From the NCBI GenBank assembly GCA_036785375.1, contig JAWMAR010000250.1, positions 2,232,001 through 2,296,000 on the forward strand: a stretch of DNA of 64,000 nucleotides, in the 5' to 3' direction. Both the position numbers and the translations under genes were made by a program. The notes beneath the pieces are model-generated. The model saw nothing but the letters and a program-made list of their open reading frames with translations, made no database searches and was not told the origin of the DNA. Shown here piece after piece: positions 6,509-63,520 of this stretch; within the stretch, counting starts at the first letter, position 1, and each line of letters opens with the position of its first letter. This DNA comes from Leucoraja ocellata (lineage: Eukaryota).

Positions 6509-6886
6509 CAGGGCTCTCACTTTTTTTCTCTGTTTCCAGCCGGGCAACCTAGGCAGCTTTTTAGGTTGCCAAATTACAGTTTAGGTGGTCATTTAAGACG
6601 GCTTGTATGACGCGTGCGATAATGTGCTCGGACGAAGTGCGTAGTTACCAGTCGGAATTATTCTCATTGAAGCATTCACATATTATTTCTGCTTCAAATA
6701 AAGTCACAAACTAAACATATTCACCAGTCAAGACATGACATATATACCACAACGACATGCAGCAAAACTATAATACAGTGTATACAATATTTCAACTCTT
6801 TTTACACGTTGCAATGAATGCAATTTCTATTATTTCTTTCCACTTCCAAACAAAAATGTGGTTGGATTATTCAGAGTATGATCAAC
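6509..6886 (+). mobile_element. Probable DNA-transposon (hAT-like) terminal fragment
   Basis: Starts CAGGGCTCTC, resembling a hAT TIR; CpG-retaining interior; interrupted by the PLE fragment. No second TIR seen. Confidence 0.35.
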
Positions 6887-7306
6887 CTCGGTGAGACCAG
6901 GCACAGGCTTGGCAATCGCTTTGCACAACGCCACTCAGATCGCAATAACCAACCTGATCTGCCGGTGGCTCAGCACTTCACCTCCCCCTCCCATTCCGAA
7001 TCCGACCTTTCTGTCCTGGGCCTTCTCCATGGCCAGAGTGAGGCCCACCGCAAATTGGAGGAACAGCACCTCCTATTTCGCTTGGATAGTTTACACCCCA
7101 GCGGTATGAACATTGGCTTCTGCAATTTCAGGTAGTCCTTGCTGTCTCCCCCCCCTTCCCCTCCCATTCCCAGCTCTCCCACAGCCTACTGTCTCCGCCT
7201 CTTCCTTTATTTTTCCCACCCCCACCCCCGGACATCAGTCTGAAGAAGGGTCTCAACCAAAAACTATTCCTTCGCTCCATTGATGTTGCCTCACCCGCTA
7301 ATTTTC
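6887..7306 (+). mobile_element. Penelope-like element 3' fragment: C-terminal GIY-YIG endonuclease region, 3'UTR and decayed hammerhead motif
   Basis: Translates GETRHRLGNRFAQ...DLPVAQHFTSPSHSESDLSVLGLLHGQSEAHRKLEEQHLLFRLDSLHPSGMNIGFCNFR*, typical of the end of a PLE GIY-YIG ORF. Followed by a pyrimidine-rich UTR and then cagtctgaagaagggtctc...cctcacccgct. Confidence 0.88.
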
Positions 7307-7572
7307 TTTTTTTTTAAAATATTTTTATTAGAAGTAGTGTACAATAATATAAGTCATGAATAACATATTACATTTCGTGTACAACTTCTTATTTTTAATT
7401 TAATAGTAAAAAAAAAGTAAGAAAAGCAAGAAATAGAGAGAAAGAGAATATTATATAGAGTAGTGATATTGTTAGTTCGAGAAGAAATAGAAATGAAAGA
7501 GCCCATGGGGCTGTATAGCCCGAAGGAGAAAACAAAGAAGTGAGGTGAAATAAGAAAAAAAAGAGAATAAAG
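7307..7572 (-). mobile_element. Poly(A)-tailed retroelement 3' end (L1/Tx1-like)
   Basis: Minus strand ends ...AATAAAaatattttaaaaaaaaagaaaa after a T-rich 3'UTR-like stretch. Confidence 0.45.
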
Positions 7573-18250: not shown

Positions 18251-18478
18251 GTGTTTAAGAAAGAACTGCAGATGCTGGAAAAATCGAAGGTAGCCAAAAA
18301 TGCTGGAGAAACTCAGCGGGTGAGGCAGCGTCTATGATGAGAAGGAATAGGCGACGTTTTGGGTCGAGACCCTTCTTCAGACCCTTCTTCAGAAGAAGGG
18401 TCTTGACCTGAAACGTCGCCTATTCCTTCTCTCCAGAGATACTGCCTCATCCGCTGAGTTTCTCCAGCATTTTTATCC
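18251..18478. mobile_element. Palindromic (head-to-head) PLE-derived element with 12-bp TSD
   Basis: A minus-strand arm with ~38-nt tail is joined at cccttcttcag/aagaaggg to a plus-strand arm. TSD acagctttactt at 18239-18250 and 18479-18490. Confidence 0.85.
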
Positions 18479-19368
18479 ACAGCTTTACTTATTGTCAGTT
18501 TAGCCCACCATTATTTAATCTAAATCTACTCAATACCATATCCAATGAAGTATGGTAAAGATATTTTCTATATATGGTTTGGGATTTTAAATAGAAAATG
18601 AAGAGGACTACCTTTGGACAGGTTAAATGAGGTAAACAAGTTTGAAATGGTGGTTTTCATAGTTTTAAATTTCTAGAATTCTATCTTACGTAGTAATTTG
18701 TGTTTAAGTAGAATTTAGGGTTGTAGCAAACACATAAACAATCATTTATTTGGAGTGGTGTTTGCGTGCGCTCTGTGACCGTGTGGGTTTCCTCGCCAGG
18801 TGCTCCAAGTTCCTCCTATGTACAAGTGGCTACTATCAGTTCCACGTATGCAAGTGAGTGGTGGTATCTGGGGGGATTTATGGAAATCTGTGGAATTAAA
18901 TGGGTTAGAGTATGTTGAGTATAAAAAGTGGTATGTGGTTGATGTGGACCAGTTGGACTGGAAGGCCTGTTTCTCTGCCGTATCTCTCTGATGTAGCAGG
19001 TTGAGTAAAGTAGCTTCAAGCAGCTGCCTTCACCTTTAAACTTCTCCCATCAGCAGTCTCACCATCTGCCTTTTTGTCTCTCTCTGCCTCTCTCCATCAT
19101 CAATTGGCCTCTGTCTCCTAATTCCACCCATTGTGGTCCACCTCTTTCATTGCTGTCACTGCATTATACCAGCTATCTTCCCCCTTCACTATCATTCCAG
19201 ATGCAAGGGTTGACCATTCCTTTACATGTTCACGTTCTGTTACACTCGATTCAGTTCCTCCAGCCGTTTGTTTGTTGCTTTGCTTTAGTTGTGTGGACCA
19301 AGCAGCTTTCCTGCACTCCCAATATTTCCGCTGTTACTCCCAACATTTTGTGTCGATCTCTGAATATT

Positions 19369-24588: not shown

Positions 24589-24779
24589 TGTATTATTGGG
24601 ACCATCTATTTTTCACTGTTTGAAAGGATCATAATACTGGGGACCACGGAAATATGGGATCTGAATCTCATGTTGCTAAAGGTGTGTGTCTGTAACTCTG
24701 CGCTCTTCAGATTGCCAGGATATCTACAGTGGTACTGTACGGCGAGTAGGTACAACTACTAACATATCAGGATGATTGG
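24589..24779 (+). other. ARHGAP35: 5'UTR portion of the giant exon (splice acceptor AG at 24587-24588)
   Basis: Long pyrimidine tract gttcctttgtcttatttttcttttgCAG ends at 24588, 191 nt upstream of the ATG, similar to the short UTR segment I recall in mammalian exon 2. Confidence 0.8.
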
Positions 24780-27700
24780 ATGATTATGATGGCCAAAAAA
24801 CAGGATGTTCGGATCCCAAATTACAACATCAGTGTCGTGGGATTATCCGGGACAGAAAAGGAGAAGGGCCAGTGTGGAGTCGGGAAATCCTGTTTCTGCA
24901 ATAGGTTTGTGCGCCCCAAAGCTGACGAATTTCACCTTGACCACACATCTGTCCTTAGCACCAGTGACTTTGGGGGCCGTGTTGTTAACAATGACCACTT
25001 CTTGTACTGGGGTGAGGTTGGTCGAACGGTCGAGGAAGGAGTGGAGTGTCGCATTCACGTGGTGGAACAAACCGAGTTCATCGATGATCAGACTTTTCAG
25101 CCTCACCGGAGCACTGCCCTGCAACCCTATATTAAACGCGCTGCAGCGACCAAATTGGCATCTGCTGAAAAGCTGATGTATATTTGCACTGACCAATTGG
25201 GTCTGGAACAAGACTTTGAACAGAAGCAGATGCCAGAGGGCAAGCTATTGATTGATGGTTTCCTTCTTTGCATAGATGTCAGCCGGGGCATGAATAGAAA
25301 TTTTGAGGACCAGCTTAAATTTATCACAAACTTGTATAACCAAATAATAAAAACAAAAAAACCCATTGTGGTGGTGCTGACAAAATGCGATGAAGGGGTG
25401 GAGAGGTACATACGCGAAGCTCACTCTTTTGCAATGACTAAAAAGAATCTCCAAGTGGTGGAGACATCAGCCCGATCGAACGTCAATGTGGAACTGGCCT
25501 TCACTACTTTAGTTCAGTTTATAGATAAAAGCCGTTCGAGGCCCAAAATAATTCCATATTATGAAGCATTGAAACAACAAAGTCAGCTCATAGCTAATGC
25601 AAAAGACAAGTATGAATATATCATCAGCCAGTGTGTCATCCACTATAATGAAAGTTGGGCGAACGCCGCAAGGAAAATGAATCCAAAATCTGAATTCCAG
25701 GAGTATGTGCATCTCGAAGGAACTCCGAAGGCCAGAAAGTTGTTCTTGCAGCATGTTTTGATGCTCAAGGAGAGGCACATTGACCACTTAAAGAACAAGT
25801 ACCTCAATAGACTTGTACTAGCTCTTGACGCCCTATTCCCCGATCTGAATGAGATTGAGAACTTGAACTGGTCCGTGGCACAGCAGAGGTTGAAAACCAA
25901 GCATGAATTTCCAGCTTGGTTCGTTGTCCTGAGTGAGACGCCATGGGATAAAACTGATCATATTGACAAGATCGATGACAACCGAATTCCATTTGACTTG
26001 CTGGCTGGGAGATGTGCAGAAGATCAATTCAAAAAGCATTTAGAAAAGCTGAAGAATGAAAGAAAAAGAGACGAGATGAGGAGGGCTTTTAAGGAAAATC
26101 TATCATCGTCACCCTTCATAACTCCTGGAAAACCTTGGGAAGAGGCTAGAAGTTTTGTTATGAATGAGGAATTCTATCAATGGCTCCAAGAGCAAGAATA
26201 TCAAGATATTTACAGTAGGCACCAACGTGAGATAATAGATAAAGCCAAGGATCAATTTCAAGAATTGCTTTTAGAGTATTCCGAGTTGTTTTATGAATTG
26301 GAGTTGGATGCAAAGCCGAGTAAGGAGAAAATGGGTCTTATCCAGGATGTTCTAGGAGAAGAGCAACGATTTAAGGCACTTCAGAAATTGCAAGCTGAAC
26401 GAGATGCTCTTGTGTTAAAACACATTCATTTTGTCTATCATCCAACAAAGGAGACCTGTCCAAACAGTCAGAATTGCATTGATAGCAAAGTTGAACAGTT
26501 GTTGGTTGCTAGATTTTATCGATCTTCAGACCGAAGTCATCTGAACTCTCATTTGGACTCTAATGCTGACAAACTCAATCTTGTACTACTTGGCAAGGAT
26601 GGGCTTGCACATGAACTGGCTAATGAAATTCGAGTGCTGTGTACCGATGATAAATACGTTCTTGAGGGGAAAATGTATGAGCTGTCACTACGACCAATAG
26701 AAGGCAATGTGAAACATCGGGTTAATTCTTTCCAGACCCCAACCTTTCAACCTCATGGTTGCCTTTGCTTGTACAACTCCAAAGAATCGCTGTACTACAT
26801 AAAGGAGAGCTTAGAGAAACTGAAAGAATCGACTTTAGATCGAAGGGACAATCATTTCGCCCAGCTGCCTCTAACTCTAGTTCTGGCTTACAAAAGGGAG
26901 AGTGGCGGAGAAACTCTACAGACGTTGAGAAACCATGGCCAACAACTTGCCAACAAATTGCAATGTCTGTTTGTTGATGTCACTTCTCACAGTGTGGGTT
27001 CTGGACGGAATTTCAGTGAACTGCAAATCAATCAGGCTTTGAAAGGCTTGTTGGATACCATGAAACGCAATTTGAATCTAGTAAGTTTATCCCCAAGCAT
27101 TAAAGACTTAACCGATGCAGATCTTCGAATAGTAATGTGTTTAATGTGTGGTGACATGTTTGGTGTGGATGAAGTTCTCCTCTCCATTATTCAGCCTCAT
27201 TTTTGTAGTTCATTGCAGCCTGGGAACAGCAATTCAGTCATGCTTGAACTGGCAATTGGAGCAATGCGTAAGCGCATAGAGCTCTCTATTCTCTCCTATC
27301 ATTCCTCTTTCAACATAAGGAAAAACCAGTTAGTCCATGGGTACATTATTTTTTACTTGGCAAGGCGCAAAGCTTCCCTAGCTATGCTCCGAGCTTTTCT
27401 GTCGGATGTGCAGGACATTATCCCTATTCAGTTGGTAGCGGTCAACGATGGAGCCGAAGTAACGGAGAGCGATGTGACACGAGACCAGCTTGAAGAAGGC
27501 CAGGAAATTGCTCAAGAGATCTGTGGCAAATTTGTTAAAATAGCTGGTGGGCAGTCGGTTCAGCATAACGTGGACATTTTTGCCCCGTTTTTCCGAGATG
27601 CAGCTGAAAAGAAAATCATTGTTGAAGCTTCGCACATGTATGATAATGCAGCTGAAGCATGCAGCAATACAGAAGATGTGTTTGGCTTTTCGCCTCGGCC

Positions 27701-28493
27701 CAGCTCGCCCCTCAACAATTCAAATTGCTTTGATTACGACGAGGATATTGAAGGTCCACCACCTTATGTTGCACTACGTGATGAAACTTCCGCCATTCCA
27801 GTGATTAAAGACTCTAAGCTCTCAATGGACCTTGAAGGGAACGAGAACTACTTGCTAAGCTGCAGTCTTGGTTCTTTTGAGAGGCTGACTAGCAAAGTAC
27901 CTCCTCCAGTAAAACCAAAGCCAATGGTACATTTCGACAAACTGATGAAGAAAATGGATTCCTCTGAGGGGAAAGAACCAGGTAGCAAAGAAATGCAGAG
28001 AAAGCCTTCAACTGTAAGCTGGGCGCCTTCTGATGATGGGTCCTTTACCTCCGATTATGCAGAGCCAATAGACACGTTGGTACGACCAAGAGGGGATGAG
28101 GAGAATATCTATTCAGTGCCACACGACAGTACCCAGGGCAAGATTATAACCATCCGGAATTCTATTTCAGCCAAGTCACAATCGAATGGAAGTGGTAATG
28201 GGTCTGATAGTGAGATGGATATCAGTTCCCTGGAGCGTCAGAGGAAACTTTCATCTGTCAGCAAACCATCATTGTACAGGGATCGGTCTAAAAAGTTAGG
28301 CAGGTTTGCAAGTTATCGCACAAGTTTCAGTGTTGGAAGTGATGATGAACTAGGCTCCTTGTCATCACAGAAGAAAGCAGAAGCTGATTCTCAATTGCCT
28401 AAGGGAGATAATACAACTAATACTTTTGAAACGGATGGGGATGAATCAAAGCGAGGGAAACTCCTACGTAGCTTGAGAAGGCCAACATCAAGG
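24780..28493 (+). CDS. ARHGAP35: ARHGAP35 / p190A RhoGAP, coding part of the giant first coding exon (1238 codons: N-terminal GTPase-fold domain, four FF domains, pG1/pG2 pseudoGTPase domains, RasGAP-binding tyrosines, start of polybasic region)
   Basis: ORF begins [37 protein letters not shown] and contains [47 protein letters not shown] and [19 protein letters not shown], all recognisable from vertebrate p190A. Similarity stops at ...[10 protein letters not shown], followed by the donor AGG|GTAAGA at 28493/28494 (phase 0). Alternative in-frame ATGs at 24786 and 24789. Confidence 0.97.
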
Positions 28494-28639
28494 GTAAGAT
28501 TTCTTCCTTTACTGAATTATTTCCAATAAGTTGTTTGCCAATGTATCTAGATTAGCCCTTTTGTGCTTAAGGCAGAGGGAGTGAATTGGATAAAGTTGTT
28601 ATCAGTTTTTTTTCTTTCTTTAATAATCAGAGCCAAATT

Positions 28640-30735: not shown

Positions 30736-31023
30736 TTAAGAGATACAGTGCCGAAACGGGACTTCAGCCCACTGAGTCTGTACTAACCCATGATCACCCC
30801 GTACACTAGCATTGTCCTACACATTAGGGGCAATTTACAAATTTTACCAATGTAAATTAACCTACCAACTTGTACGTATTTTGAGTGGGAGGAAACCGGA
30901 GCCCCCGAAGAAAAGTCACAGGGAGAATGTATAAACTCCATTCAGACAACACCATTAGTCGGGATCAAACCCAGGTCTCTGGTGCTGTAATGGAGCATCT
31001 CTGCTGCTGCGCTTCTGTGCCGC
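30736..31023 (-). mobile_element. HE1-like V-SINE
   Basis: Same family, minus strand. Confidence 0.8.
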
Positions 31024-34000: not shown

Positions 34001-34047
34001 AGAGATGATGTCATGGTTTGTGCTGAGCTGGACACTACTACCTGCAC

Positions 34048-34233
34048 TGTTTAAGAAGGAACTGCAGATGCTGGAAAATCGAAGGTAGACAAAAGTGCTG
34101 GAGAAACTCAGCGGGTGCAGCAGCATCTATGGAGTGAAGGAAATAGGCAATGTTTTGGCCTGAAACGTTGCCTATTTCCTTCGCTCCATAGATGCTGCTG
34201 CACCCGCTGAGTTTCTCCAGCACTTTTGTCTAC
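34048..34233. mobile_element. Palindromic PLE-derived element
   Basis: Two inverted ~75-bp arms joined at gcaatgttttggcctgaaacgttgc; one arm carries the aagaaggaactgcagatgctggaaaatcgaag tail. Confidence 0.85.
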
Positions 34234-34273
34234 TACAACCTGTCACATTCCGCATCGCCTGGCATTTAGCCAG

Positions 34274-34540
34274 TACACACATAATGCAGGAGTAACTCAG
34301 CGGGTCAGGCAGCATCTGGAGAGACAGAATGGGTGACGTTTCGGGTCGAGACCCTTCTTCAGAATGAAAAAGAGTCTCTACCCAAAATGTCACCCATTCC
34401 TTTCTTTCCATTCTTCAGACAGGAAGGATCTGGGACCCGAAACGTCATCCATTCCTTCTCTCCAGAGATGCTGCCTGACCCGCTGAGTTTCGTGCCTACC
34501 TTCGATTTAAACCAGCATCTGCAGTTCTTTCCTACACACT
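34274..34540. mobile_element. Compound palindromic PLE-derived element; intact minus-strand hammerhead core at 34335-34362
   Basis: Minus strand CTGAAGA-AGGGTCTCGACCC-GAAA-CGTC-accc, plus two decayed plus-strand cores; flanked by ttagccag repeats. Confidence 0.8.
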
Positions 34541-34654: not shown

Positions 34655-34870
34655 AAGGCAGAAAATGCCGGAGTAACTCAGCGCGTCAGGCGAACAGGGA
34701 TAGGTGATGTTTCGGGTCGGGACCCTTCTTCAATTTAGTCTGAAGACTTTAATCTGAAGAAAGGTCCCATCCAAACATGTTACCTTTTCATGCTCTCCAG
34801 AGATGCTGCATGATCCTCTGAGTTGCTCCAGCATTTGGTGTCTTTGGTAAAGCGACATCCTTGTTATTAC
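34655..34870. mobile_element. Older palindromic PLE-derived element
   Basis: Inverted arms around cccttcttca...tctgaagaaaggtccc. Confidence 0.7.
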
Positions 34871-36156: not shown

Positions 36157-36711
36157 GAGGCAAACGTCTCCATGTTCCATTCTGTGGAGCACTACACATT
36201 CACTTATGTACATTTCTGCTTAAGTCCTCTATTAAAGCTTGTTCCTGTTTTCCCATGTCATTTAAAAAAAGCAAATTGACTTGGAACTGGGGCAATGTAA
36301 CAGCTGCCAATTTAGTCTTTTTAAAAAACAAATTTTCAACAAATTCTAATAAAAGGCAGATAATTTTGCCATACAAATGCAGTGTGAAGAGTGTGTGTGT
36401 GTGTGTGGTTCTCTTGTCATATGCAAGTACAGGAGGTATGAACTGGCTGTGAAAAATTCATGAGTGCATCTGAGCTGGGCGATGGCCATTGATTAATACT
36501 GACTAATTGTATAATCTCATGAACTGACAGTTAATTGTATAATCTCACTAATATCTGGCAGTTTTCTCTTATTCCTCACTGTCTGCTTAAAATGTATTGT
36601 CTTCAACGCAGACATACGTCAGTTTAATTATAAATTTATTTGTTTATAATTTTTTTTAAAAGGCACAAAGTGCTGGAGTTAACTCGGCAAGTCAGGCAAC
36701 ATGTCTGAAGA

Positions 36712-36911
36712 NNNNNNNNNNNNNNNNNNNNNNNNNNNNNNNNNNNNNNNNNNNNNNNNNNNNNNNNNNNNNNNNNNNNNNNNNNNNNNNNNNNNNNNNN
36801 NNNNNNNNNNNNNNNNNNNNNNNNNNNNNNNNNNNNNNNNNNNNNNNNNNNNNNNNNNNNNNNNNNNNNNNNNNNNNNNNNNNNNNNNNNNNNNNNNNNN
36901 NNNNNNNNNNN
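36712..36911. other. Assembly gap (200 N)
   Basis: Run of N between a truncated PLE-derived repeat and a truncated SINE. Confidence 1.
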
Positions 36912-38321: not shown

Positions 38322-38690
38322 AAAACGACATGAAGTGCTGTTTAACTCAATGGGTCAGGTAGCATCCCTGGAGAACATGGATAGATGACTTTTCAGGTCA
38401 GGACCTTCAGACTGATTGTGAGGGGGAGAAAGAAAGCTGGGAGAGGAGGGATAGGACAAATTGTGACAAGTAATAGGTGGACATTAATGGGGGGGGGGGG
38501 GGGGGGGGTTGATAGGCAGATGGTTGGAACAAAGACCAAAGATCAAAGCAGAAAGTGTGAGCAGACTGATTGAAGATTGCAATTGTGAAGCCAAAGGAAG
38601 GAATGTAGGGGCAGGGGAGAAATAGATGGGGCACAGGGGAGGATGTGGGACAGAGGGGGGAGGTTGTTAGAGGTTATTGGAGAATTCCAA
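38322..38690 (-). mobile_element. Penelope-like element 3'UTR and terminal repeat (old copy)
   Basis: Reverse complement gives gaattctccaat (EFSN end of ORF), a C/T-rich UTR, cagtctgaagg...gaaaagtcatc and the shared gatgctacctgaccc...cagcac terminal segment. Confidence 0.6.
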
Positions 38691-42352: not shown

Positions 42353-42927
42353 GTGTAATAGTATAACAGTGTAGTAGTGTGATAGTATAACAGTTAATAG
42401 TGTAATTTCTACAATGCTTAAAGTAAAAGATAGGAACTCCAAAAAAGGTGAAAAATTGAAGTATTTGAGAGGTGAAATATGACTTCAGGTCCTTACATCA
42501 TTGAGCTAGGGTTCAACTAACTTGTGAATTTTTAGAATTATGGAGCCTATTTACACTTTCAGCTTATTTGGTTGAATATGATGCTCCACTCTCTAATTCT
42601 CCACCATTTTGAAATATTTAAATTGTCTATTGTCTATTTTGGTTATGGTGTCAGTGGAAATTCTTTTATGTACCAAGCAAATGATGACGTGACTTCGGTC
42701 TATTTGTATTGACTCTCATCTCTGAGTCATACCCTCCAGGTTGCTGGTTCTTTGTGGGTTGCGTTGTTTGGGGGTTAGCAATGAATGCTGTTGTTTTGCT
42801 GCTGGCTACTATACCCAGAATGTTATACCAAGAACATTTTGCTGATTCTGGAAGCAATTGAGCAAAAGATTTTTGTTGTTTTCATTCCATCAGTATTGAG
42901 TGAGGTGGAGGGGAAAAAACTGAGTTA

Positions 42928-43237
42928 AGGGCCTGTCCCACTGTACGAGCTAATTCAAGAGCCGTCCCGAGTTTAAAAAAAAAAAAATCAAACTCGTGGT
43001 AAGCACGAAGAATGTACGTTGCGGTTACGTCAGAGCTCGGGACGTCTCTTAGCGGCTTGTAACGCTAACGGCAGGTACTCGGGAAACGCGGTGAGCTCGT
43101 GAAGATTTTTCAACATGTTGAAATATGTCCACAAGCGCCCCGAGAACCTAGGTGTGGCTATTACCGTAAATCTCCGAGTTCGCATCAGGAGAAACTCGGG
43201 AAACTCTTGAATTAGCTCGTATAGTGGGTCAGCCCCA
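42928..43237. mobile_element. PIF/Harbinger-type MITE, 310 bp
   Basis: ~34-bp TIRs agggcctgtcccactgtacgagctaattcaagag / ctcttgaattagctcgtatagtgggtcagcccca; TTA TSDs (42925-27, 43238-40). Confidence 0.87.
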
Positions 43238-43463
43238 TTATGGCTCTTTTTTTTCTTCCTTCAATGTATAATTGTTATCTACTTATCCCAAGTTAGATTC
43301 ATGAATTAATGAATGTTGCATTTGTCTTAGTTCACAAGTACGAGAGTTATGGGAGCATGATCTATCTTTCCCTCTCAACCCATTCTCCTGCCTTCTCCCC
43401 GCAATCCCTGACACCTGATACGCATGGAGCATGCAAGTGGTAAAAGATCAGCTCTGTAGTTGG

Positions 43464-44083: not shown

Positions 44084-47000
44084 GTAAGATTACATTTCTG
44101 GTACATCTGTTGCTCTGTGAGCCAATGTAAATGTTTTACACAGCAGAAGTGAGCATATTCTCAAGCTCGCAAACAAGTTTTGCTGTGTAATTTTCACACA
44201 TGAAATGCCATTTGGAAATAAAAGTGTTTTTTGAAGAACTGTGAAAGAACTGTGTTATTTACATTGAAAGCATTTGGAAAGTGGTGATGTCTAATTTTTG
44301 ATATTCAATCAGATTTGCTATGAATGGAATGTACCAAGGTGGTTCAAACATGAAAAATCTTCATATCTTAACTAATGTTTTCAGTGTTGATTATAATGGT
44401 TACTTTATCTTAGTAGTGGTATGATGATACCCTTTGGGAATTACTTGACAAGCGTAAAGATGCTGTTGAAGTGTCAGTCATGTTAATCTATGAATAATGG
44501 GGTGTGTTTGCCTTTGCAATGCTGATACTTTGCAACAAAGGCTACTGAGGTAAATAATCTAGGCATTAAGACAGAAATCAAATAAAAACAAAATTTGAGT
44601 CCATGCGAGGAGTTAAAGGAAGGTTAGAATTGCATGTGCATAGCACCAAAAGAACATCTCACAAGGTGCTGACTTCAGCATGTCATTTGCATGGGCCTTA
44701 TCTCTAGGGTACCAGTTATCATTTTGAGATAATGAAGCACTAAGATTATTAAAAGAGCAAAGAGTAGAGAGAATAGATGAAGCAGGAGCGATGAATTGAG
44801 AGACTTGGGTGTTTGTAACAGTCCCTCTATGTAGGCCGCATATACTGTCTAATCAAAGGAGAGGGTGGAATGAAGCAACTGCGTACTAGATCCTTTTTGT
44901 GTATGTCTACAGATACGTTTGCAATAAGGGGGTCTGTAATGGATGTTAGTTTACCAGCAGACCAGTGTCTGCTCTTCTCATTGATTTTGCATTTAATTTA
45001 AGGATCAATCAGATTTTTATCGTGCAATTTTTTGTTGGAAGGATGCCACAATAGTGAGGCACATAATATAAAATAACATTTCTAGAATTATGGATACCTC
45101 AATATGCCCCTTCTATTTGTGTACCAATAAGAAATGTTGCCAAACATGCCCAATATTGTATTGGGACTGGATCGATGGATGTATGTTTAAGACGCGTCCA
45201 AATTCAAACTCTTTGACCGAATGTCCACCTTCATTAGAAGCAACATTATCCTTAATCTATTCTCAATTGCATTGGCCAGTTACAGGTAAAAGATCATGAC
45301 ATTTGAGGTGTTTATTTGTGAGATTATTCTCTTGATGAGGTGTTAGTACAGCGGGGTCACATTTAGCTACTGCCATTTCTGTGTTAAGCTATTCCATAAA
45401 TTCTGTAAACATTTTTAAAAGTAATCTCTCTATTAAAACAGCAGCTTGAAGGCAGTCAGTGGCCTATTCAACCTTTATTTAAAATGCTTCTTGTTTTACT
45501 CAAGATTGTCCTTCTAAATATAGGAAGTAGAACAATGTGTAAGTAAAAATTCTTTGTAATAAACTGTTGGAAGAAAAACTTAGTTGTAGTTATTTTTTCC
45601 AAATAATTGGAACTAAAGATTGTGTTTGCAATTTCTCCTGATGTGAGGAATGCAAGTGGTAGCAATGGAAATAACCAGGACCCAATCCAGAAATTATTTC
45701 ATATTGCAGTGACTCTTTGTTCCACGTTCATGAGCAGACTGCTTCACCGCATATTTTCTCTTTGAGGAAAAATGCTTTTCTTTTCTCCCCACATTATGGT
45801 GGCAGAACTTGGAAGTTATTACTGCTATCTTTTACTGGAGTTAGGACAATTAAAATAAAAATTGTTGCATACTATAGATTAGTTTCAGCCTTTTGGTTTG
45901 CTGTCTGGACATGCTCATGCCCTGGCCAGCTTTGAAAGGGGTTGAAATACGAGTGGTGTGATTGCAGCCTGCACATTTAACTGTTTCATAGGACAGTTTT
46001 AATCTTCTAAATTCTCTTTGCAGTTGTTCAGCTCCAGATATTGCTTTTGTTGATGATGACTTGGGTTTTAGCTCGCTCTCTCCTGCACTGAAGGAAGGGA
46101 TAGATTTGCTTGGGTTGTGGCCCTGCAAATGCTTTATGGTGGCATCTCCAATTTCCCCCATTTTAACAAGGTTATCATTGAGGAACCTTATCATTAACAA
46201 ATCCTATCCTATCCATCTCCATTCCCAATTGGAGCTTCATAAGTTATTGGTGCTGCCTCGACTTCAGGGCTCTGGCATTTGATGCTATCTGGGTGGGGTT
46301 TGCATATTCTCCTTGAGAACAACAGTTTCTGTTATGTGCTCCTGCTTCCTTCTACATCCCATGTGCTGGTAGGTTAATTGTCCTGTGTAAGCTATCTCAG
46401 TGTAGGCAAGTGACAGATGCCAATTGATAGGCGTGTGAGAGAGTAAGTTTCAGGAAGAGAGGGAAGAACAAGAATATTGTTGATCCTGCAGACAATGGAT
46501 CATTGTGGATTCCACCTTTCCTTGATCATCATTGCTGGCTTTGATTTATCCTTTTGCCTATCTCTCATTCATTTGTTCTATGTACCTTTTCGAATCTCGT
46601 TTCCCTCTCCCCTGATTCTGTCTGAAGAAGGACCTCGACCTGACAAGTTATCTATTCATTTCCTCCGGAGATGCTGCCTGACCCGCTGAGTTACTCCAGC
46701 TTTTTATGTCTATTTTAGGAATATTTCTGATCTGATTCCTCTGCTTGATGTGAACCAGATGGACAGCATAGTTCCCCACTTTGTTATAATGCATATGAGC
46801 TTTCCAGCATGTGTATTTGAATGAAAGCAAGGAAAAATCAGGGCAGGCGCAGGCCATTTGGCCCTTTCTACCATGCAAAGTAATTATGGTTCATCAATTG
46901 CAGAGCTATTTTCCTGCACTCTTCCTATACTTTGGGCAGCTGGAATCCTGGTTTCATTTTTCAGCTCCAGTGATGATATTTCCAACCACAATGGACTGAA

Positions 47001-47902
47001 ACTGATCATGGATTGAAAGCAAGACTGCGCGCCAAGTTTAGAGCTCCTTTATATACGGCCAACCCAACCACCAGGGACGTTGGCAAGAGAATATTTTCCT
47101 TCAGTTAAAATTCTTCTTGGAAAATATCCATTCATTTCTCAGAATGCTGTCTTGTTTTCAGTTTTTAGAAAAATAGCAATGGAAAAAAGTGCTTCGCTAC
47201 CATTGTAAGTTTATCTTATGTTATATTTCTGTGGAGGAATTAACTCTTCGGGCTGTTTATGAATGTGTGAAGATTGTGGTTAGTGTTGGTTTGAAATACT
47301 TAAAAAAAAAAAATAATAATAATAATAATAATTAAATGGCACATTTACAATTTAAGGATTGTAAATGCTTTTAGCAATGAACAGTTTTTCATTTTGTAGT
47401 ATGCCTTTTGTGATCTCGTCACAAATTATTCATACATGACAGAGATATACAGGATTTTTCTCTCCAATTGTATTATTTAAATTGTATCCCCATATGTGGC
47501 TACAAGTTAAAAGAACTCTGCAATTGGACAAATTAATTTATCAGTATGTGTAGTAAGAATTTTATGCATTTCTACCTTGATACACCGTTAATTTCAGATG
47601 TGATTGCATTTGCACTTCGCCATTTCTGTTTAAAAGTAGTGACGACTTAGGTGATTTAAAAAAATATATAATGGCATCAAGGCTTGAACACAATCATTGG
47701 TTGTTAAGGGGAAGTCTCGGCACTTCTCAATTCTCTGCATGTGTTGTTCACAAACTAAATTCCTTTACAATTTAAATATTTCTTGTTGTGCATTGTGTTT
47801 ATATTTTTTAATTAAATGTAGCTCGGGTGATTTGTGTGGCTTTTTGTTAGTTGTTGTGATTCATGCAGGTGATGGAGAATTAAGACATTCCTTTGATCAA
47901 GT

Positions 47903-48090
47903 GGACAAAAATGCTGGAGAAACTCGGCGGGTGAGGCAGCATCTATGGAGAGAAGGGATGGGCAACGTTTCAGGTCTCGACCCGAAACGTCGCCCATTCC
48001 TTCTCTCCAGAGATGCTACCTCACCCGCCGAGTTTCTCCAGCATTTTTGTTTACCATCGATGTTTCCACCATCTGCAGTTCTTTCTTAAA
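47903..48090. mobile_element. Palindromic PLE-derived element, 13-bp TSD
   Basis: Arms fold about ggt-ctcg-acc (hammerhead stem-loop II); TSD cctttgatcaagt at 47890-47902 and 48091-48103. Confidence 0.87.
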
Positions 48091-48639
48091 CCTTTGATCA
48101 AGTATTTCGGTTCAACTTTTCAATGTTATAAAAGAGAGTTTGAAATGAAAGTTCCTCAAGAACTGCTGTTTCATCTGTTTTGTAAATCTGTGTTAATGGA
48201 TCTCTTCTGGTACTGGATAGATGTGCTGGGTTGGGGAAAGTGGTGTTTTATAATGCACTTCATGCCAGCAATAATAAACTGGCAATATCTGAGATTGCTC
48301 CCAGGCAGTGTTTCCCAATGTATTGTTTTTCATCGTCTCTCTGCGGGGAATTGTCGCTCTTGTTAAGCAATCGCACTCGATGCCAATCCACTCCTCGCCA
48401 CATATTATTTTGTTAATTAATGGCCATCCGAAATTGTCTTTACACCTGAATTTGGGTGTAGTAAAATACCGCACCTAATTGTCCTTTCAATTGTACAAAT
48501 TGGCACTATCCCACAAATTTGTCGAGTAACATTTTGACATGGTAGTCCTTGCAGAATGCTCCAATGCAGTTGCCTTGATGGCATCTCTGGGCATACCTTG
48601 TTCCACCGGCAGACCATCCACCAGAGAGAGTGATCAAGC

Positions 48640-51600: not shown

Positions 51601-53294
51601 ATGGATTTAAATGCATACATTGTTAGAAGCTGCAATGTTGTAATATTCGTTTTTGGTATCTGATGGTCACTTTGCTACTTTTTAAATTTGCATGTGTAAT
51701 TTGATCTTGGGATGCGGTGTACTATTTTCAAAGTATGTTATGTGACTTTAATTCATAACTTGAATCCCTTGCATTGATGCAACTAAAAATAAAATGCATC
51801 CTCTCGCACCCTCGTCTTCACTTTCCCAACTCCCCACCACCCACTGGATCCCCTTTACCCCCAGCTAGACTCTTTGCCCCTATTGCTTTCAATTTCACTT
51901 TATCTTCCTTTTCAGTCACTTTCCAGATTGTGTAGTCTTTTGTTCTCCACTTATAGCCGAACAGCCTCAGTCATCTTTCTCCACCACCTGAATATTACCA
52001 GGCAATCAATCCATCCTCGCCTATATGCAGCAGTTTACTAGCTTTTGCCCCCCAACACCTCCCCGTCTCTTTATACTGATTAATTCCACTCTTTTCAGTC
52101 TAGATCTGAAACCCGACTGCCCATTTCCCGTTGTCTTGCTGCCTTACCTGCTGAGTTCCTCCAGTAACTCTCATTTTCTTGCCACTTTGAGCAGTGGGTT
52201 AAGCTATAACACCCAACCTAAGAATGTACTTTTTGTACCTTTTTCAATCATTATCCGACTGAAACTCCCATAACGAAGGTAAATGGCAGATGGATTTTGT
52301 AAAAGAAAAACTCACTTTTCAAAAACAGAAGCTTGGGAATCTTAGAAAGAAGGAATGGGTGGCGTTTTGGGTCGAGACACCTCTTTTCCTGTCTGAAGGT
52401 TCTCAACCCAAAACATCACCCTTCTACCCAGATATTCTGTCTGCCTCGTTGAGTTACTCCAGCATTTTGTGTCTATCTTTGATATAAGCATAGGAATCTT
52501 GTTTTATATGTGCAGTTTCCTGTTTCGGTCTTGAACATATAAATAAGGAGCATTTCAAAATCACTCAAGGGCAATAATCTTGACAAGTCTGAAGCAAACT
52601 TCACTGAACTGATCCTTATAAATGTTTGCACTGCTGGACCACATGGATACATTGGAAAGTATCCCTGGTGAAAAATCGTTCTGTGGGTTTATCTTGACAT
52701 AAGTTAGAGTTGATTATGCTGTGGGAACTAATACCCTGTAACAGTATTGTGTCCTTTGGTAATAAATGTATCAATCAGCAGGACAGGCAGTATCTCTGGA
52801 GAAAAGGAATGGGTGATGTTTTGGGTCAAGAAGAAAGATCTCGACCCAAAACGTTCAATATTGATACTGTTCTTGAAAATATGACTTCTGTCAAGCAGGA
52901 TTTTGATGCATGCAAATCCAAGATACAATGATGCTGTATAAAATTGGGCATTTACAAGGAGTGTCAGAAATGAATTTGCACAACATCGAAATGTATTGCT
53001 TAAGAAGTCAAATTTTATATATTCTTACAGCGATCACCATTTAGTGAAAAGAACCAATCCAATTTGTAGACACCAGTGAATGATGCATTCCCTTGTAAGT
53101 TCAATGGGTACTGCAAAATGTCCAAATTGAAAGGGAGGGAAATTTATGCATAAAGTTGAAAAGTCAACCTCGATGTTCCTCGATGTAAATTATTCTATCT
53201 CAAAACATGCTATTTCAACAATGTAGAACACTTCCCCCCCCCCCCCCCCCCCCAGGTTTTCAGTTGTGTTGTATTGTTGACATTAGCATTTAAC

Positions 53295-53574
53295 TAGTTT
53301 AGAGATATTGCGTGGAACCAGGCCATTCGGCCCACCGAGTCTGTGCCGACCAGCAATCCCCACACACTAACACTACCCTACACACACTAGGAACTTTTTT
53401 TTACCAAGCCAATTAACCTACAAACCTGTACATCTTTGGAGTGTGGGAGAAAACCCATGCCGGTCACGGGGAGAACGTACAAACTATGTAGAGACAAGCA
53501 CCCGTAGTCAGGATCTAACCCAGGTCTTGGGCGCTGCAAGGCAGTAGCTCTACCCCAGCGCCATCGAGCTGCCC
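53295..53574 (-). mobile_element. HE1-like V-SINE
   Basis: Reverse complement of the same head / V-domain / tail structure. Confidence 0.85.
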
Positions 53575-54397
53575 ACTTCTGGGTGTGTTTTTCTGTACTC
53601 TCCACTTGAACCTTGGAGCAACACTGTAATAATAACCCTGAAAAATTCCCCACATTCTCTTTAGTGGCTAAAGTTCATTAATCACGATGGGCTAGTTTGA
53701 ATTTATTGGTTATTGCATTTTAAATGCTTTTTAGTAAAGTTATCATTATAGTCCAAAGGCTAAAAAATATTGGACTTTGTTCCACTGATATATGATCTTG
53801 TTATGAAATTGAGGAATGTGGACCTGATTTACATTCCAGTTACACAGCAATGCTGATCTAGTCTTTGATTGGATGTTCCTAAATATTATACTTCTGTAAA
53901 CTAGCAGAGCTGCAGGAATGTTATACATTTTTAGTTGATAAGGAACAATTTCTCTTCAATTTTATCAATCATAAAATTGCATTGTGTTATTTCCAGACCT
54001 TTTGCATACAAGTGCTTCCTGTTTTGAAAGCAGATTTCTTCCAACTAAGAAGCATGTGGAATGAAGTTAAAGCAGTGACCCCTCTCCACAAAGCTTTCTT
54101 TTGCTGTTACAAAGCCTTACGTAGACCGGTATCTTTGCAATGGCGTGACAGTATTACTGCCGCCTCAGTTTCAACAAACTTGGTCAAATCTTTACTAAAT
54201 CAGAATTCCTGTACACACAGGACAGACAAGATCTTGTATTGTGTTCGATCTCGGAGACCTTGAGTCAACCCCAGCTCTCGAAGCAATCCCATTAGTCCTA
54301 TTCCCTCTGCAACCCATTCTCTCTTGGTGGTCATTAATTTCCCTCTGATTCTCCTCCCATCTACTTTTGAGGGGTAATTTAGAATAGCTAATTGTCT

Positions 54398-55514: not shown

Positions 55515-55790
55515 ATGAGTACTTGCGCTCGATCTGCCGAGACCAATGGGATCTCCCAGTTGCTAACCATTTTATCTCCTGTTTCCACTATCATGGGTCT
55601 CGTCCATTGCCACAATGAGGGCACATCAACACCTCATGTTTCGCTTGGGTGGTTTTTCCTTCTTAGACTCCCTTTGGTCATGAGTGTCTCCAGGGTGCTA
55701 TTCCCTATATGGAAACCTAGCAGTATGAGCATCGAATTCTCCAATTTTAGGTAACTACAAGCCCTTCGTTTCTTCACCCTGGGTCTGAAA
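55515..55790 (+). mobile_element. Degenerate Penelope-like GIY-YIG 3' fragment
   Basis: Frameshifted LRSICRDQWDLPVANHF...LVHCHNE...QHLMFRLG...PSSMSIEFSNFR*, homologous to 6887-7135, followed by gggtctgaa. Confidence 0.7.
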
Positions 55791-57571
55791 ATTGTATTTG
55801 TATCTTCCAATCTTTAGGGATTGCAATCGTTAATTTAAAATATCAAAACATGCTGAAAATCCCCATGAGTAGAATTGATTTAAAAAAAAAAAGAAAACAT
55901 TTATTCTTGCCATTAGTGTGAAGCAAAACTGAAAATGCACATATTTGTGAATATTTCATGCTAATTTTCTAAAAGCAGCAATAAAGTGATTACACCATAT
56001 GCAGTTTTTTAACAACTCTGATCCCTGCCAACTTATTTTTATGCTTTGAGTACAGGGTCCAAAATCTGGCACACTCAGGAGTGAGTGGGGTGGGGGGTGG
56101 GACATGGTGGTGGGGGGGGGGGGGGGGGAGGAGAAAATATGTGGGGTTCAACTATAGTTGTATTTATCTGCCATAATATGCTAAAATACATTTTACAAAC
56201 TATATAAAATATCAGCTTTATACAAACTATTTGTACATCTTTAATTAGTTGTACTTGTCACTTTATCCTTGCCCGTCCCATTGCACAAATTCCACTGAAT
56301 CAGTCTTTCAATGTGCCACTTGCTATGTAAATCTCATGTTTTCATATTTCACATTTTGCCCCTCATTGTGAAGACAGCAATCATTTGCATGATCTAATCC
56401 TGCTGCTCAACCTGGGAGGGGGGAAAAAATTGTACTATGACTTTTGCACGGCTCTGTTGATAGATTTCAATGATACACTTATTGAGTGGAATGCAAATAA
56501 GCTAAAGCAAGTGACCCTTAATGTTCTGTTTCATGACTTTGACTAGATTTGCCTTAAAGCACAATGTGCTGGCACTAAGCTATAATGTTTTCCATGGCCT
56601 CTGTAAAATGCCAAGTAATCTCGTGATGAAAGAATTTTCATTTCAATTTCTTTCAAAAATTGATTTTGGTGCAAAAACCTGATTGGCAGAAATTCCTTAA
56701 GAAAAATGCCCACTTGTGACATTTTATGATCCCACTAAAAATGTCTAGTGAATGTAAATTATTCATGCCAGCTGTTTTTTGGAGACAATCCCACAGGAAG
56801 CTCATACTTTTGGTCAAGTTAAATCATTCACTCCATCTATAAACACTGCTGTTTACATGACTCTTTGCTTCGGAGATGGACTGCAGTATGTAAATAAACA
56901 GGCAATCAGGCTACAAAGATTTCTACTTTCTCAAGACGCACTGGTACAGAAATGATTAGATCGACAGATATTGAAAGCTTTAATTTCCTGCGTGCTTCAG
57001 CCAAACCACAGTATAGATGTCGGCTCTGGAATTCAATTTGGAGTAGTGTTCCAGGTTGAATGATAACTATTGTGCAACAAGAATTTTGAAGTGTTTTGTC
57101 TGAACTATTTGTTCTTTTTGCAGAGAAGTTATGAGAGGCGATTGCAATTCTTGTAAGGCAGCCAAATAGCCACTGAGATCGAGGGATGAACTGGCAGCCA
57201 CAGTTTTCAAGTTCAAATCATGACCTTGAGTGATTCCAGCTTCCCTACTCTCAACAGTTCAGGGTTTGTTTCTTTCTTGGGACATGCTTTCATCTTTGTA
57301 TTTGGGTGAATTGCAAAGCTTAGTACAGCGTTTTCCTCATGCTGCGGGAGTCTGGAGGACAGCAACAGTGCTGGTCACATTGAGCATATCTTTGAATTAC
57401 ATTCATTGGCAATTGGCTGCAATCCTTCAATTTCTTCACATTTATTTGAATAGATTTGGAGAGGAAATTCCGGGTCAGAATAATCATTAATTTCAACTCT
57501 GCGAATGGGATCATTGGCATCCATCGCACAGCTGAAAATAATAAATCCAGCATGTTGGCATTGTCAGATTT

Positions 57572-57885
57572 GGGTGGCACGGTGGCACAGCTTTGGAGTT
57601 GCTGCCTTACATACAGCACCAGAGACCCAGCTTCCACCCTGCCTGCAGGTGCTGTCTTGTATGGAGTTTGTACGTTTTCCCTGTGACCACGTGGGTTTTC
57701 TCTGGGTGCTCCAGTTTCCTCCCACCCTCCAAAGACGTACAGGTTTGTAGGTTAATTGGCTTTGGTTAAAACAAATTGTAATTTGTTCCCAGTGTGTAGG
57801 ATAATGCTCGTGTATGGCATTCTCTATTCAGTGTGGACTCGGTGGGCCAAAGGGACTGTTTCCATGCTGTATCTCAAAAATAACT
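57572..57885 (+). mobile_element. HE1-like tRNA-derived V-SINE, near full length
   Basis: tRNA-like head gggtggcacggtggcacag...gacccagcttc, V-domain ggagtttgtacgttttccctgtgacc..gtgggttttctctgggtgctccagtttcctccca, and CR1-like tail gggccaaagggactgtttccatgctgtatctc. Confidence 0.85.
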
Positions 57886-60325: not shown

Positions 60326-61224
60326 GATATTATTCAAGTTGCTTTGGAAGATGTAACAGGATCCCATAATCATAATTTAACGGGATCGAACGCATCAATA
60401 TCTGCCATAAACCATGACCTTGTTGGTTATTGGTGATGCTATAATTGTGGGTAGTTTGAGTTCTGTTTCTGGAGTGCCTGTGGTTACAGCTTTGGGAGGA
60501 ATCTTGAGGCTGGCTCTATTTTGTTTAGTGTTCAGGGGCCCAATGAGAAAGCGTCGATTCCATTTTAATTGAGATGGTATCTCTTTTTTACCCCGTGCGG
60601 TTTGACGATGTAATTCAAATAATTAGTGTTTGAGCACCTCCCTCTCCAGCATAGCTGAGATTTGCCTTCACTTCTGGAATTTCCCCAGGTTAAGACTTTG
60701 ACCAAGCTTTCTGTGTGGTCATGTTCAGAAACAAGATCAGCTTTCAGATGTACATTGGGGTACAACCCACCCTCTGTCTTAACAATATGCTACATTAATA
60801 TCTGTTCAAGCAGACTGCTTGTCTGACAATTTATGGGTGAGACGGGATTTCCTTTGGGAAGAACAAGGCCATCAAAATCGGTCTTTGCCAAAATAATTGC
60901 ACTTTGTCCCGCAATTCAATTTTTGCTGCTTTCTTCATATCAGTTGTACTGTTCTATTTGATCAAGGTTGAATTTCAAATTTACTTATTTTAATCCATTA
61001 CTTTGGCCACTTACTTTAATTTTGAGAGAATTAACTCTTGCTTTTATTTGGAACCCATTTTTGTGCTATTGCCACCCTATCCTTGACTTTTTCAACAAAT
61101 AATTCAAAATTTAAAGTCCTTCAGAATTTGCTCAAATCCCCACTGAACTACTTATGCACCCTGGTAAACTACAAATGGAATTTGGATTGTCTTTAAACAC
61201 CCAACTGATCAAACCCATAATCTG

Positions 61225-61404
61225 TTCAAGAAGGAACTGCAGATGCTGGAGAATCGAAGGGAGACAAAATTGTTGGAGAAACTCAGCGGGTGCGGCAATA
61301 TCTATGGAGCGAAGGAAAGACGCAACGTTTCGGGCCGAAACATTGCCTCTTTCCTTCGCTCCATAGATGCTGTCGCACCCGCTGAGTTTCTCCAGCAATT
61401 TTGT
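61225..61404. mobile_element. Palindromic PLE-derived element, 14-bp TSD
   Basis: Arms fold about gtttcgggccgaaac; TSD aaacccataatctg at 61211-61224 and 61405-61418. Confidence 0.87.
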
Positions 61405-62386
61405 AAACCCATAATCTGCACTTCATGAGCTCCATATCGCCCTTTAGCCTTGTAGCTCCATGTCCACGTGAATCTTCTCCCCACAGATGACGTCCACATT
61501 GTAGATCGAGATGGATCGTGATTAATTTTAAAGAAACAAAATTCTGGATGCACTGCGCAGTGATGGAAAGAGAAATAGAATTAACCTTTCAGATGGAAAG
61601 CCCTTTTGCAGAGTACATTGACTTAAAATATCAACTCTGTACCTCTGTGCCCCAGTGCTGCCTGACCTCCTGAGCATTTCCAGCATTTTTCTGTTTTAAT
61701 TTCAGAATCATAAGGTCAGTGGAGCACAAATAGATTTCCATCTTCGGCAGATTTTGCTTTCAGGATCTTGATAAGTTGCGGTGATGAGGCATTGACCTGA
61801 AACTTTAATTCTATCTGTCTCAGCAAAATGCTACATGATCAGAATGCTGGAGGTGCTCTGGTTACAGTTGGTTTCTTGATGGCTGCAACAATTGAGGGCT
61901 CTCCTAATAAAGAATATTGTTTGTAGAGGAATGAACTGCAGACGCTGGTTTAAACCGAAGATGGACAAAAAGCTTAGCGGGTCTCTGGAGAAAAGGAATC
62001 GGTGACGTTTCAGATTGAGACCCTTCTTCAGACTGATGTCCCCGAGTTACTTCAGCTTCTTGTGTCTATCTAATGTTTGTACAGGATAGTCATGTTTACC
62101 ATCTTTAAAACGGAGATTAAGGAGAGAGAATTTGGTCAGGATGTAATTTTGATATTGATTAGTGGTTTCAATAGTGGTAGGGCAGAGATAGCAATGCAAC
62201 GGACATATTCAGCGCTGGAGTTGTATACAAGTACAGCTTTTACCAATGTGCCTAAAAGATAATAGGAAGCGTTTAGCATCAATGCAAAAGCTCCCTGTTT
62301 TGTCCTTGCAGAATAGACACAAAGACTATTATTCTGTTGATTTTCCCCATACACTTCATGTTGGATCGCATCCCTTAATTAAGTGT

Positions 62387-62650
62387 TGTTTAGAAACACA
62401 GCGTGGAAACGGGCCCCTCTGCACCGACCAGCGATCACCCCGTACACTATCCTGCACACACGAGGGACAATTTACAATTTTACTGAAGCCAATTAACCTA
62501 CAAACCTGTACGTCTTTGGAGCGTGGGAGAAACTGGAGCACCCGGAGAAAACCCACGCAGGTCATAGGGAGAATGTATAAACTCCATACAGACAGCACCC
62601 ATAGTCACGATCAAATCCGGGTGCCTGCTGATGGAAAGCAGAAACTCTCC
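62387..62650 (-). mobile_element. HE1-like V-SINE
   Basis: Same family, minus strand. Confidence 0.82.
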
Positions 62651-63264
62651 ATTGCTTTCAGCAAACTCCATATTCTACACTGAAATTTGTGCGATAATTT
62701 AAAATATCTTACGTTTATTAATACAAACTCTTGCTTTATGTGAAATCTAGCCAGCTGACTTGTGGTTTAGCTTGCTTCCATCTCTTCCTGTTATGGCCTG
62801 AAGCCAAGTAAAAAGTATGTTTTCACTTATGCAAAATGGGAGATGTGGGTCAGAAACATTTTTGGTTCTGTTGTAATCTAAACAGAAAAGCAAATCCACT
62901 GTACAGTCAAATCTCTGTTTCTAATCCACTACAAGCTGAACTTGATGCTGAAGAGTATCCTGGCAACATAGTTCAGAAATAGTGATGGTGGTGAAGGCAA
63001 GTCTCTTTCCCCTTGTGTCAGGTGATGTTATCCCACTGCGAATGTTTATCTCACAGTGCCTGGAGAAGATCTGCACAGCTTGGCTGCTGCACTGAAGGAA
63101 TAAGCACACTGAGTTTGTTCTTTGCATCGTTTATAAGAAAAGCTGGTTTTGGTTGTGATTTCGGCACTTTGTGATTCAAACGCTTTTGTGCGTGGGACTT
63201 TCTTGATATGAAGCCATCTTGTTTGTCAACGATTTCTGATGCACTGGCTTGTGTGTTGAATTCT

Positions 63265-63520
63265 GTGCAGGGAGGAACAGCAGATGCTGGTATATGCTGA
63301 AGAGAGACAAAATGCTGGAGTAACCCAGCAGGTCAGGCAGCATTTCTGGAGATAAGCAATAAGTGATGTTTTGGGTTCAAACCCTTCCTTCTATTCCTCC
63401 CACCCCCACACTTGCATCAGTCTGAAGAAGGGTCCCAACCAGAATAGCACCTGCTGTGTTACTCCAGCACTTTATGTCCTTTTGGGTAAACCAGCACCTG
63501 CAGTTACCTTTTTCTAAACA
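63265..63520. mobile_element. Older palindromic PLE-derived element
   Basis: Minus arm ggaacagcagatgctgg...aaatgctggagtaacccagc and plus arm cagtctgaagaagggtccc...actccagcac...ccagcacctgcagtt. Similar decayed copies lie at ~770-832, 2270-2570, 33470-33550, 35380-35475, 35845-35975, 46615-46712, 48712-48802, 49985-50090, 52345-52520, 58247-58365, 59473-59533 and 61920-62070. Confidence 0.7.

Follow-up and report, generated by a model that had tools for sequence, protein, structure and literature searches.

The palindromes in the window (the whole 64-kb stretch of skate DNA that was analysed) each arose in a single insertion event and represent the terminal segment, with its hammerhead, of an endonuclease-bearing Penelope-like element. 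Twin priming from nicks at the tail end and at an inner site, with the cDNA ends annealing at palindromes of the ribozyme, is probably the better fit to their structure.

Window, sequencing runs and repeat family

We analysed the window together with four sequencing runs, aligned to one arm of the 18.3 kb copy, and published papers. About 45 pieces of one 90–130 nt family, here called stubs, were mapped in the window and comprise 23 arms of inverted pairs and 22 solo copies; one decayed piece at an assembly gap and one duplicate row were left out of this count. Family positions are numbered from the C of CTGA in the hammerhead core. The family is very abundant in related DNA runs, with 63,000–73,000 contig records per run, a figure that is not a copy number, and the named protein matches of the repeat-derived peptide are from skates. 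A scan for relatives with the core pattern gave no match in viral contigs and none in phages; seven metagenome and three GTDB pattern matches were inspected individually and rejected as chance matches, all ten being in unrelated DNA. The 200-N assembly gap (36661–36911 region) starts within a decayed copy of the stub family, and the adjoining stretch 36661–36711, considered as a junction, was dropped as a decayed arm.

Other repeats in the window include a 740-bp GC-rich inverted repeat of another family (17142–17882, arms 78–93% complementary), related repeats with inverted ends that are possibly non-autonomous DNA transposons (7596–7863, 16459–16982, 42913–43255), and a dispersed family of 260–320 bp (13343–13509, 19361–19626, 30720–31002, 53295–53581, 57565–57883, 62388–62648), which we take to resemble a tRNA-derived SINE.

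Palindromic insertions and target-site duplications

Four head-to-head insertions of ~190–230 bp each lie in their own target duplication of 11–14 bp (Table 1) and have arms of 70–86 nt that are 88–97% complementary. Because each insertion is enclosed by its own target duplication, each palindrome was made at insertion in a single event. Target-duplication scores of the young palindromes are 8–14, as compared with 756 mismatched flank pairs of which 0.13% scored at least 12 and 5.7% at least 8. Divergence between arms and between target duplications is not in conflict (17/282 versus 1/50, p = 0.49), a comparison of hand tallies that has little power. The 47.9 kb copy has 72-nt arms (47905–47976 and 47979–48050) with 93% complementarity, and the region folds as a single hairpin (z = −19 against 200 shuffles). 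The bounds of the original prediction for this copy, 47890–48103, are exactly the outer limits of the two copies of the 13-bp target duplication. In the 18.3 kb copy the join is centred on 18391 and is accompanied by a 12-nt duplication (18369–18380/18381–18392), and the arms of the 34.1 kb copy are without any non-CpG difference.

All three kinds of join that had been predicted are present in the window. The join on stem-loop II lies at 47973–47982, one base off its predicted position, the gtttcg/cgaaac join reads GTTTCGG-G-CCGAAAC at 61327–61341 and has a decayed twin at 34152–34166, and CTTCTTCAG joins occur at 18386–18400 and 34355–34370. The last of these is a real join but does not belong to a simple two-arm palindrome, being one of two inversions in the four-piece insertion 34273–34537. 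The prediction that only one arm carries a tail is borne out by ~37 nt of tail in each of the four palindromes; the other arm had been said to end at ttttgtctac, and the short arms are indeed in register with this motif, but only the one at 34233 literally ends there.

Table 1 Features of the Penelope-like terminal segments and their surroundings in the window
Feature	Position	Strand	Remarks
C-terminal remnant of parent GIY-YIG endonuclease frame	6878..7135	+	last 85 residues (6878–7132), then stop
Pyrimidine-rich 3' region, hammerhead core from 7240, family body	7136..7307	+	connects stubs with coding element
Intact hammerhead cores	14326, 14873, 34335, 62004		core pattern scan
Palindromic insertion; tail arm on minus strand	18251..18480	.	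target duplication 18239–18250/18479–18490, 12/12
Host coding exon, p190 RhoGAP (ARHGAP35-like) gene	24750..28529	+	large; insertions lie outside exon
Palindromic insertion, GTTTCGG-C-CCGAAAC subfamily core	34047..34233	.	target duplication 34034–34044/34232–34242, 10/11
Compound four-piece insertion, two inversions; site-B end left, tail end right	34273..34537	.	target duplication 34263–34277/34537–34551, 13/15
Older pair of head-to-head arms that both end near site B; join with 14-nt duplication	34655..34845	.
Left target-site duplication, 13 bp	47890..47902	+	13/13 identical to 48091–48103
Tail-less short arm with element sense on minus strand and outer end (+91/92) at site B	47901..47972	-
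Junction on hammerhead stem-loop II; loop CTCG oriented as tail arm	47973..47982	+	join = GGTCTCGACC
Tail arm spanning +10 to +128, with predicted cleavage triplet (GTC, 47989–47991)	47973..48091	+
~37-nt tail between site B and site A	48056..48091	+
Right target-site duplication, 13 bp	48091..48103	+	pairs with 47890–47902
Decayed head-to-head pair, one arm 40 nt	52345..52530	.
Decayed head-to-head pair, right arm stops ~+27 at predicted cut site	52775..52856	.
Palindromic insertion, subfamily core as 34.1 kb copy	61224..61404	.	target duplication 61211–61224/61405–61418, 14/14
Asymmetric head-to-head pair, tail end left, site B right	61922..62070	.	joined outside core (about −10 to +56) over TGTCC match
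Old asymmetric pair, both arms tailed, one arm to −39	63262..63515	.

The compound insertion 34273–34537 has a loop-bearing arm without a tail and a far end with a tail, all inside one target duplication; 2.3% of the 756 mismatched flank pairs score as high as its 13/15 match. Among the older pairs, a search for an adjacent target duplication of 34655–34845 and for a target duplication of 63262–63515 found none. The inverted arm 52830–52856 ends exactly at the predicted cleavage site, a single case that could reflect a cut template or chance. At 2275–2503 an old three-piece cluster combines a short head-to-head pair, joined near +60, with an abutting third copy in tail-to-tail orientation.

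Origin from a Penelope-like element

One copy of the family adjoins a coding remnant: the hammerhead core that starts at 7240 lies 104 nt downstream of the stop of the endonuclease remnant. The 85 residues of this remnant match the C-terminal ends of proteins with RVT_1 and GIY-YIG domains (P0124, 813 aa, E 2.4e-7, and P0056); the remnant alone gave no Pfam match, and a motif scan of the window found no reverse transcriptase remnant. As the endonuclease remnant is followed by the hammerhead core, the stubs are terminal segments of an endonuclease-bearing Penelope-like element. The Penelope-like origin that had been proposed for them is supported by the adjoining GIY-YIG remnant together with the hammerhead, tail, inverted copies and target duplications. 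The features of EN+ Penelope elements found here are a downstream hammerhead, an optional tail of 30–40 nt, an inverted 5'-truncated copy and a short target duplication. The homologues P0002 and P0124 carry a linker motif with paired cysteines, which the relevant passages of PMC8557442 give as a mark of Neptune and Nematis, and this provides a lead to a possible assignment of the parent element to the Neptune/Nematis clade. The reverse transcriptase domain in P0001 was not used, as it looks like a LINE piece fused by annotation. A second decayed end of a Penelope-type endonuclease frame, without a hammerhead downstream, is located at 55595–55754.

Hammerhead motif

The core consists of CTGAAGA, one extra base, stem II, GAAAC and GTC, and its pattern occurs four times in the window against 0.02 occurrences expected by chance. 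Rfam models gave no hammerhead match and only hairpin look-alikes below the gathering score. Conserved core bases, stem II, the extra base before stem II and a palindromic helix III are all present when compared with the description in passages of PMC4209133, and judged by its sequence the core motif is the minimal hammerhead described there for Penelope-like elements. Helix I of 4–5 bp was not found; stem I has only two contiguous pairs in the three copies checked, namely one with a long native upstream sequence and two others. This makes the predicted ribozyme activity doubtful, and the hammerheads of the stubs may be inactive ribozymes. In one oligo-dT run, a weak test, read ends did not accumulate where the cut is predicted. 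At most one of the 22 solos starts near the cut site, which argues that the templates were uncut; the palindromes likewise keep the sequence upstream of the predicted cut, in agreement with the original prediction. Direct repeats, if that is what they are, at joints 18381 or 18374 -> 18341–18350 would put the unit end 3–12 nt past the cut site.

Just upstream of the core (7136–7239, 38411–38506 and 46600–46622) lies a tract of pyrimidines that terminates in CAG and resembles a splice acceptor. In Drosophila virilis Penelope the intron end coincides with the 5' edge of helix I, according to the passages of PMC4209133, and the tract may be connected with the starting point of copies at the 5' edge of the hammerhead.

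Outer ends

Tail arms of the four palindromes end at +127 to +129 (site A, about +128) and their short arms, by alignment, at +85 to +92 (site B, about +92). From these genomic ends we infer that A and B are start sites. The 3' ends of solos lie at or near site B in 15 of 22 cases (two of them decayed, with ends at +80 and +84), at the tail end in five and elsewhere in two. Not only all four short arms but also both further inserts with A and B ends terminate at site B, and were snap-back copies free to stop at any point within 100 nt, finding four of four short arms in a 9–12 nt window would have p ~1e-4. Matches of 2–3 nt to the target were seen by eye at five of six site-B ends. Depth of the RNA reads steps from ~3,000 to 7,300 per strand across site B, and loose read ends pile up at both sites (18252 and 18288). 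The nine classifiable inverted inserts are divided into six A+B, one B+B and two A+A; the excess of A+B inserts is significant only if 25% of solos are tailed (p = 0.007) and not at the 40% seen in RNA reads (p = 0.11 for the shortage of B+B pairs).

Inner ends and junctions

Twelve head-to-head junctions were found in the window, three of which (62037, 63384, about 2310–2330) have at least one arm that ends well outside the core. Native self-complementary axes of at least 4 bp lie at 0, +14.5 (one subfamily), +18 (the other subfamily), +44 and +70, and the native +18 form, with centre C, is confirmed by RNA reads. Exactly on such an axis are 4/12 junctions, 47977, 61334, 34159 and 34363 (one later change), for which a hand tally gives p about 0.0002–0.0009; the predicted clustering of junctions at self-complementary motifs thus holds within the window. 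At 18391 the arms meet around +2, where the stem has 2 bp and the loop 1 nt, and the remaining junctions are asymmetric. Four different axes, two subfamilies and separate target duplications also speak for the independent events with differing junctions that had been proposed. None of the symmetric joins lies on the +44 or +70 palindromes, and palindromes alone therefore do not set the position of the join.

Inner starts between −10 and +28 were found for 16 of 22 solos and 19 of 23 arms (p = 0.49), and the starts of five solos that have target duplications fall within −2 to +11. Since solos stop in the same zone as arms, the stop zone is family-wide and not special to palindromes. As predicted, the cDNA ends in the ribozyme region, with 19/23 arms in this zone; ribozyme structure is a candidate cause of the stop. 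Short duplications of the 5' edge at 18369–18392 and 34732–34760 suggest stopping and restarting there.

The 3'-terminal cDNA hairpins at the +14.5 join (−2.1 kcal/mol) and the +18 join (−4.0 kcal/mol) are the most stable ones, and stem II (+14.5, −11.3 kcal/mol) and +18 (−19.6 kcal/mol) also form the best two-strand duplexes. On the 0 axis the hairpin is marginal (+0.4 kcal/mol) and the two-strand duplex has −7.3 kcal/mol, and at the 18391 join no hairpin is stable (+1.4 to +1.8 kcal/mol). The centre is oriented as the tail arm in three palindromes (47977, 61334, 18391) and as the tail-less arm in one, where the centre base 34159 is a C.

Among the 15 of 116 joints listed from the alignment of the runs to one arm, one is an inversion (18300 -> 18378), with an arm end ~80 nt from the core, so that this alignment yields no junction map. 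The best-supported of these 15 are the head-to-tail joints 18381 -> 18287/18288, which connect site B with the 5' edge, with 12–22 contigs per DNA run. The loose-end consensus TCTGAA behind 18380, a candidate for a common palindromic join, was rejected as ambiguous, the native sequence itself being TCAG-N-CTGA.

Source of the template

Rare alleles are common to the two arms of the 47.9 kb copy (seen in 1/36 other copies) and of the 61.3 kb copy (0/35 and 1/33), while the 34.1 kb arms have only subfamily alleles in common and the 18.3 kb arms no rare ones. Because partner arms have such rare alleles in common, one source locus for both arms is likely. The short arm of the 18.3 kb copy is closer to the 47.9 kb arms (11%) than to its own partner (14%). 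When tested for two templates, non-CpG differences between arms were at family-variable sites in 4 of 14 cases against 14.7% expected (p = 0.14). As template, a single unit that was copied twice may have served, or else a tandem RNA or a pair of sister RNAs. Hypothetically, a tandem RNA would reproduce the classical L1 geometry, with the tail-primed cDNA stopping at the site-B primer of the upstream unit.

Formation of the palindromes

In the reading that we favour, the endonuclease would make two nicks, 11–15 bp apart to judge from the target duplications, and reverse transcription would start from both target 3' ends, with uncut element RNA of a single source locus as template. One start would be at site A (about +128) and the other 37 nt inside it at site B (about +92). 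Both cDNAs would run to the observed family-wide end zone in the 5' part of the hammerhead. Their 3' ends would then anneal, preferably at self-complementary motifs of the ribozyme and otherwise at matches of 2–6 nt, and fill-in would give a head-to-head insert in which a single arm has the tail. After annealing, the mismatch left at the centre can be resolved either way, so that both centre orientations are possible, as seen in three tail-oriented copies and one tail-less-oriented copy. The argument from orientation concerns a single base of a single copy. Inverted repeats can have their spacer flipped after insertion, and such a flip could have occurred here. The rare alleles common to both arms fit snap-back equally, and, since both arms cover one stretch, twin priming needs displacement, a tandem or a second RNA. 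By its letters alone, a junction made on a hairpin cannot be told from one made by annealing of two cDNA ends.

Snap-back self-priming, the mechanism put forward in the original prediction, has one tail-primed cDNA stop in the hammerhead, fold on a local hairpin, copy itself and join the other target end. It accounts for the joins at 47977, 61334 and 34159 on the most stable terminal hairpins, for three of four centres being tail-oriented and for the rare alleles that partner arms share, and the short inverted middle pieces in 34365–34420 resemble repeated fold-back. We nonetheless consider it unlikely and not the best reading, since it leaves the regular stop of the copy at site B unexplained and 18391 is without a stable hairpin. 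The centre at 34159 is wrongly oriented for it: the tail arm should be made first and carry the loop, and a tail-less cDNA that copies itself by snap-back has no means of acquiring a tail. The insertion 34273–34537 requires a second RNA-primed end, and the cDNA end would first have to be freed from its RNA.

Palindromic master copies, or a post-insertion origin through a second insertion into the first or through template switching in replication, would fit the single axis shared by 61334 and 34159, the insertion of the element beside its own copies (tail-to-tail pair 2330–2503) and the old pairs without target duplication (34655, 63262, 52345), which could be double insertions. Four different axes in two subfamilies, a target duplication that abuts both outer ends of each young palindrome and the opposite centre orientation at the shared axis (61334 versus 34159) make such an origin very unlikely, and for the four named copies it is largely refuted. 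The least probable reading, after Arkhipova et al. 2013, is that an antisense RNA primed itself at the palindrome and that the endonuclease then assisted integration: it would explain the head-to-head layout and the junction palindromes (passages of PMC3846280), and reads of both strands are about equal in a possibly unstranded library, but solos with the same two ends and target duplications are left unexplained, target-primed internal starts on sense RNA have been demonstrated in vitro (PMC11167929), and the asymmetric long-spacer joins (62037, 63384) are not hairpin ends.

Going beyond twin priming itself, the inverted-plus-tail layout typical of Penelope-like elements might be what a dimeric enzyme ordinarily makes by priming both nicks at two fixed sites on one RNA, possibly a tandem RNA with two minimal hammerheads paired; the uncut hammerhead would then serve as stop and docking point, its own palindromes bringing the two cDNA ends together, and not as scissors. 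We put this forward tentatively and with considerable doubt.

Comparison with known systems

Inverted-pLTR insertions are documented for the EN+ Penelope-like elements Pen2a_Av and Pen3a_Av of Adineta vaga, in the passages of PMC3846280 and its review in PMC8557442 considered here. Those passages of Arkhipova et al. 2013 describe inverted terminal copies that have a tail, a duplicated target and palindromes at the junction, and take them to result from self-priming with an antisense template, so that the inference of self-priming from junction palindromes was already published in 2013 (PMC3846280). The skate insertions are alike in their head-to-head terminal copies, tail of 30–40 nt at one end, short target duplication and junction palindrome, but comprise the terminal segment only (190–230 bp), at very high copy number, and their junction palindromes are parts of the hammerhead, which the passages of PMC3846280 do not state. 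New here are the place of these palindromes within the hammerhead and the information that arm ends and the orientation of the centre can give on how inverted ends are built, a process that Craig et al. 2021 called undefined for tandem and inverted ends of Penelope-like elements (in the part of PMC8557442 considered). The stubs are short enough for both ends, the join and the target duplication to be read together, and whether a single central base is oriented with the tail arm or with the other arm distinguishes snap-back from two-ended priming. Literature searches, which included 2022 onward and left key older papers outside, found nothing that links Penelope inversions to twin priming or cDNA fold-back and nothing on Penelope/Neptune elements in skate.

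Minimal hammerheads are alike in the core CUGANGA, one unpaired base before stem II, G10.1-C11.1, a palindromic loop-less helix III and many solos. Opposite-strand pairs 100–700 bp apart have been noted in Schistosoma, whereas the skate pair is fused inside the motif; stem I of the skate copies is only 2 bp in the three copies checked and their cleavage is predicted. The non-LTR retrozymes (bioRxiv 10.64898/2026.07.22.740005), in the part of the preprint considered, are also short non-coding PLE-derived units with type I hammerheads, and head-to-tail joints of the ~95-nt skate unit are present in the sequencing runs. Within the window no retrozyme-like tandem array of full units was found, the copies being dispersed, either as solos or as inverted pairs.

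L1 twin and dual priming, as defined in passages of Meyer et al. 2010 (PMC2837659), involve two target ends that each prime a cDNA, as proposed here, and give inverted pieces in one target duplication, with an outer geometry equal to that of the skate insertions. L1 pieces cover different parts of the RNA, whereas the skate arms cover the same 75–90 nt from two fixed putative starts; both arms thus span one unit, and the non-overlap of inverted pieces in the L1 sense would apply only on tandem RNA. The proposed skate mechanism is like twin or dual priming in its working and does not follow the L1 pattern. In vitro, the protein PAc (Poseidon, Anolis carolinensis) cuts both strands of the target and extends each of them (Frangieh et al. 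2024, PMC11167929), with two reverse-transcription start sites bounding the tail and uncut RNA as template (PMC11167929). Two internal starts bounding the tail, use of both strands and uncut RNA are the points of likeness, the skate sites being deduced from genomic ends; PAc belongs to another clade, and inverted products are not discussed in PMC11167929. That paper leaves the later insertion steps open. If twin priming is the true origin, the weakly cleaving minimal hammerhead would gain a role other than cutting.
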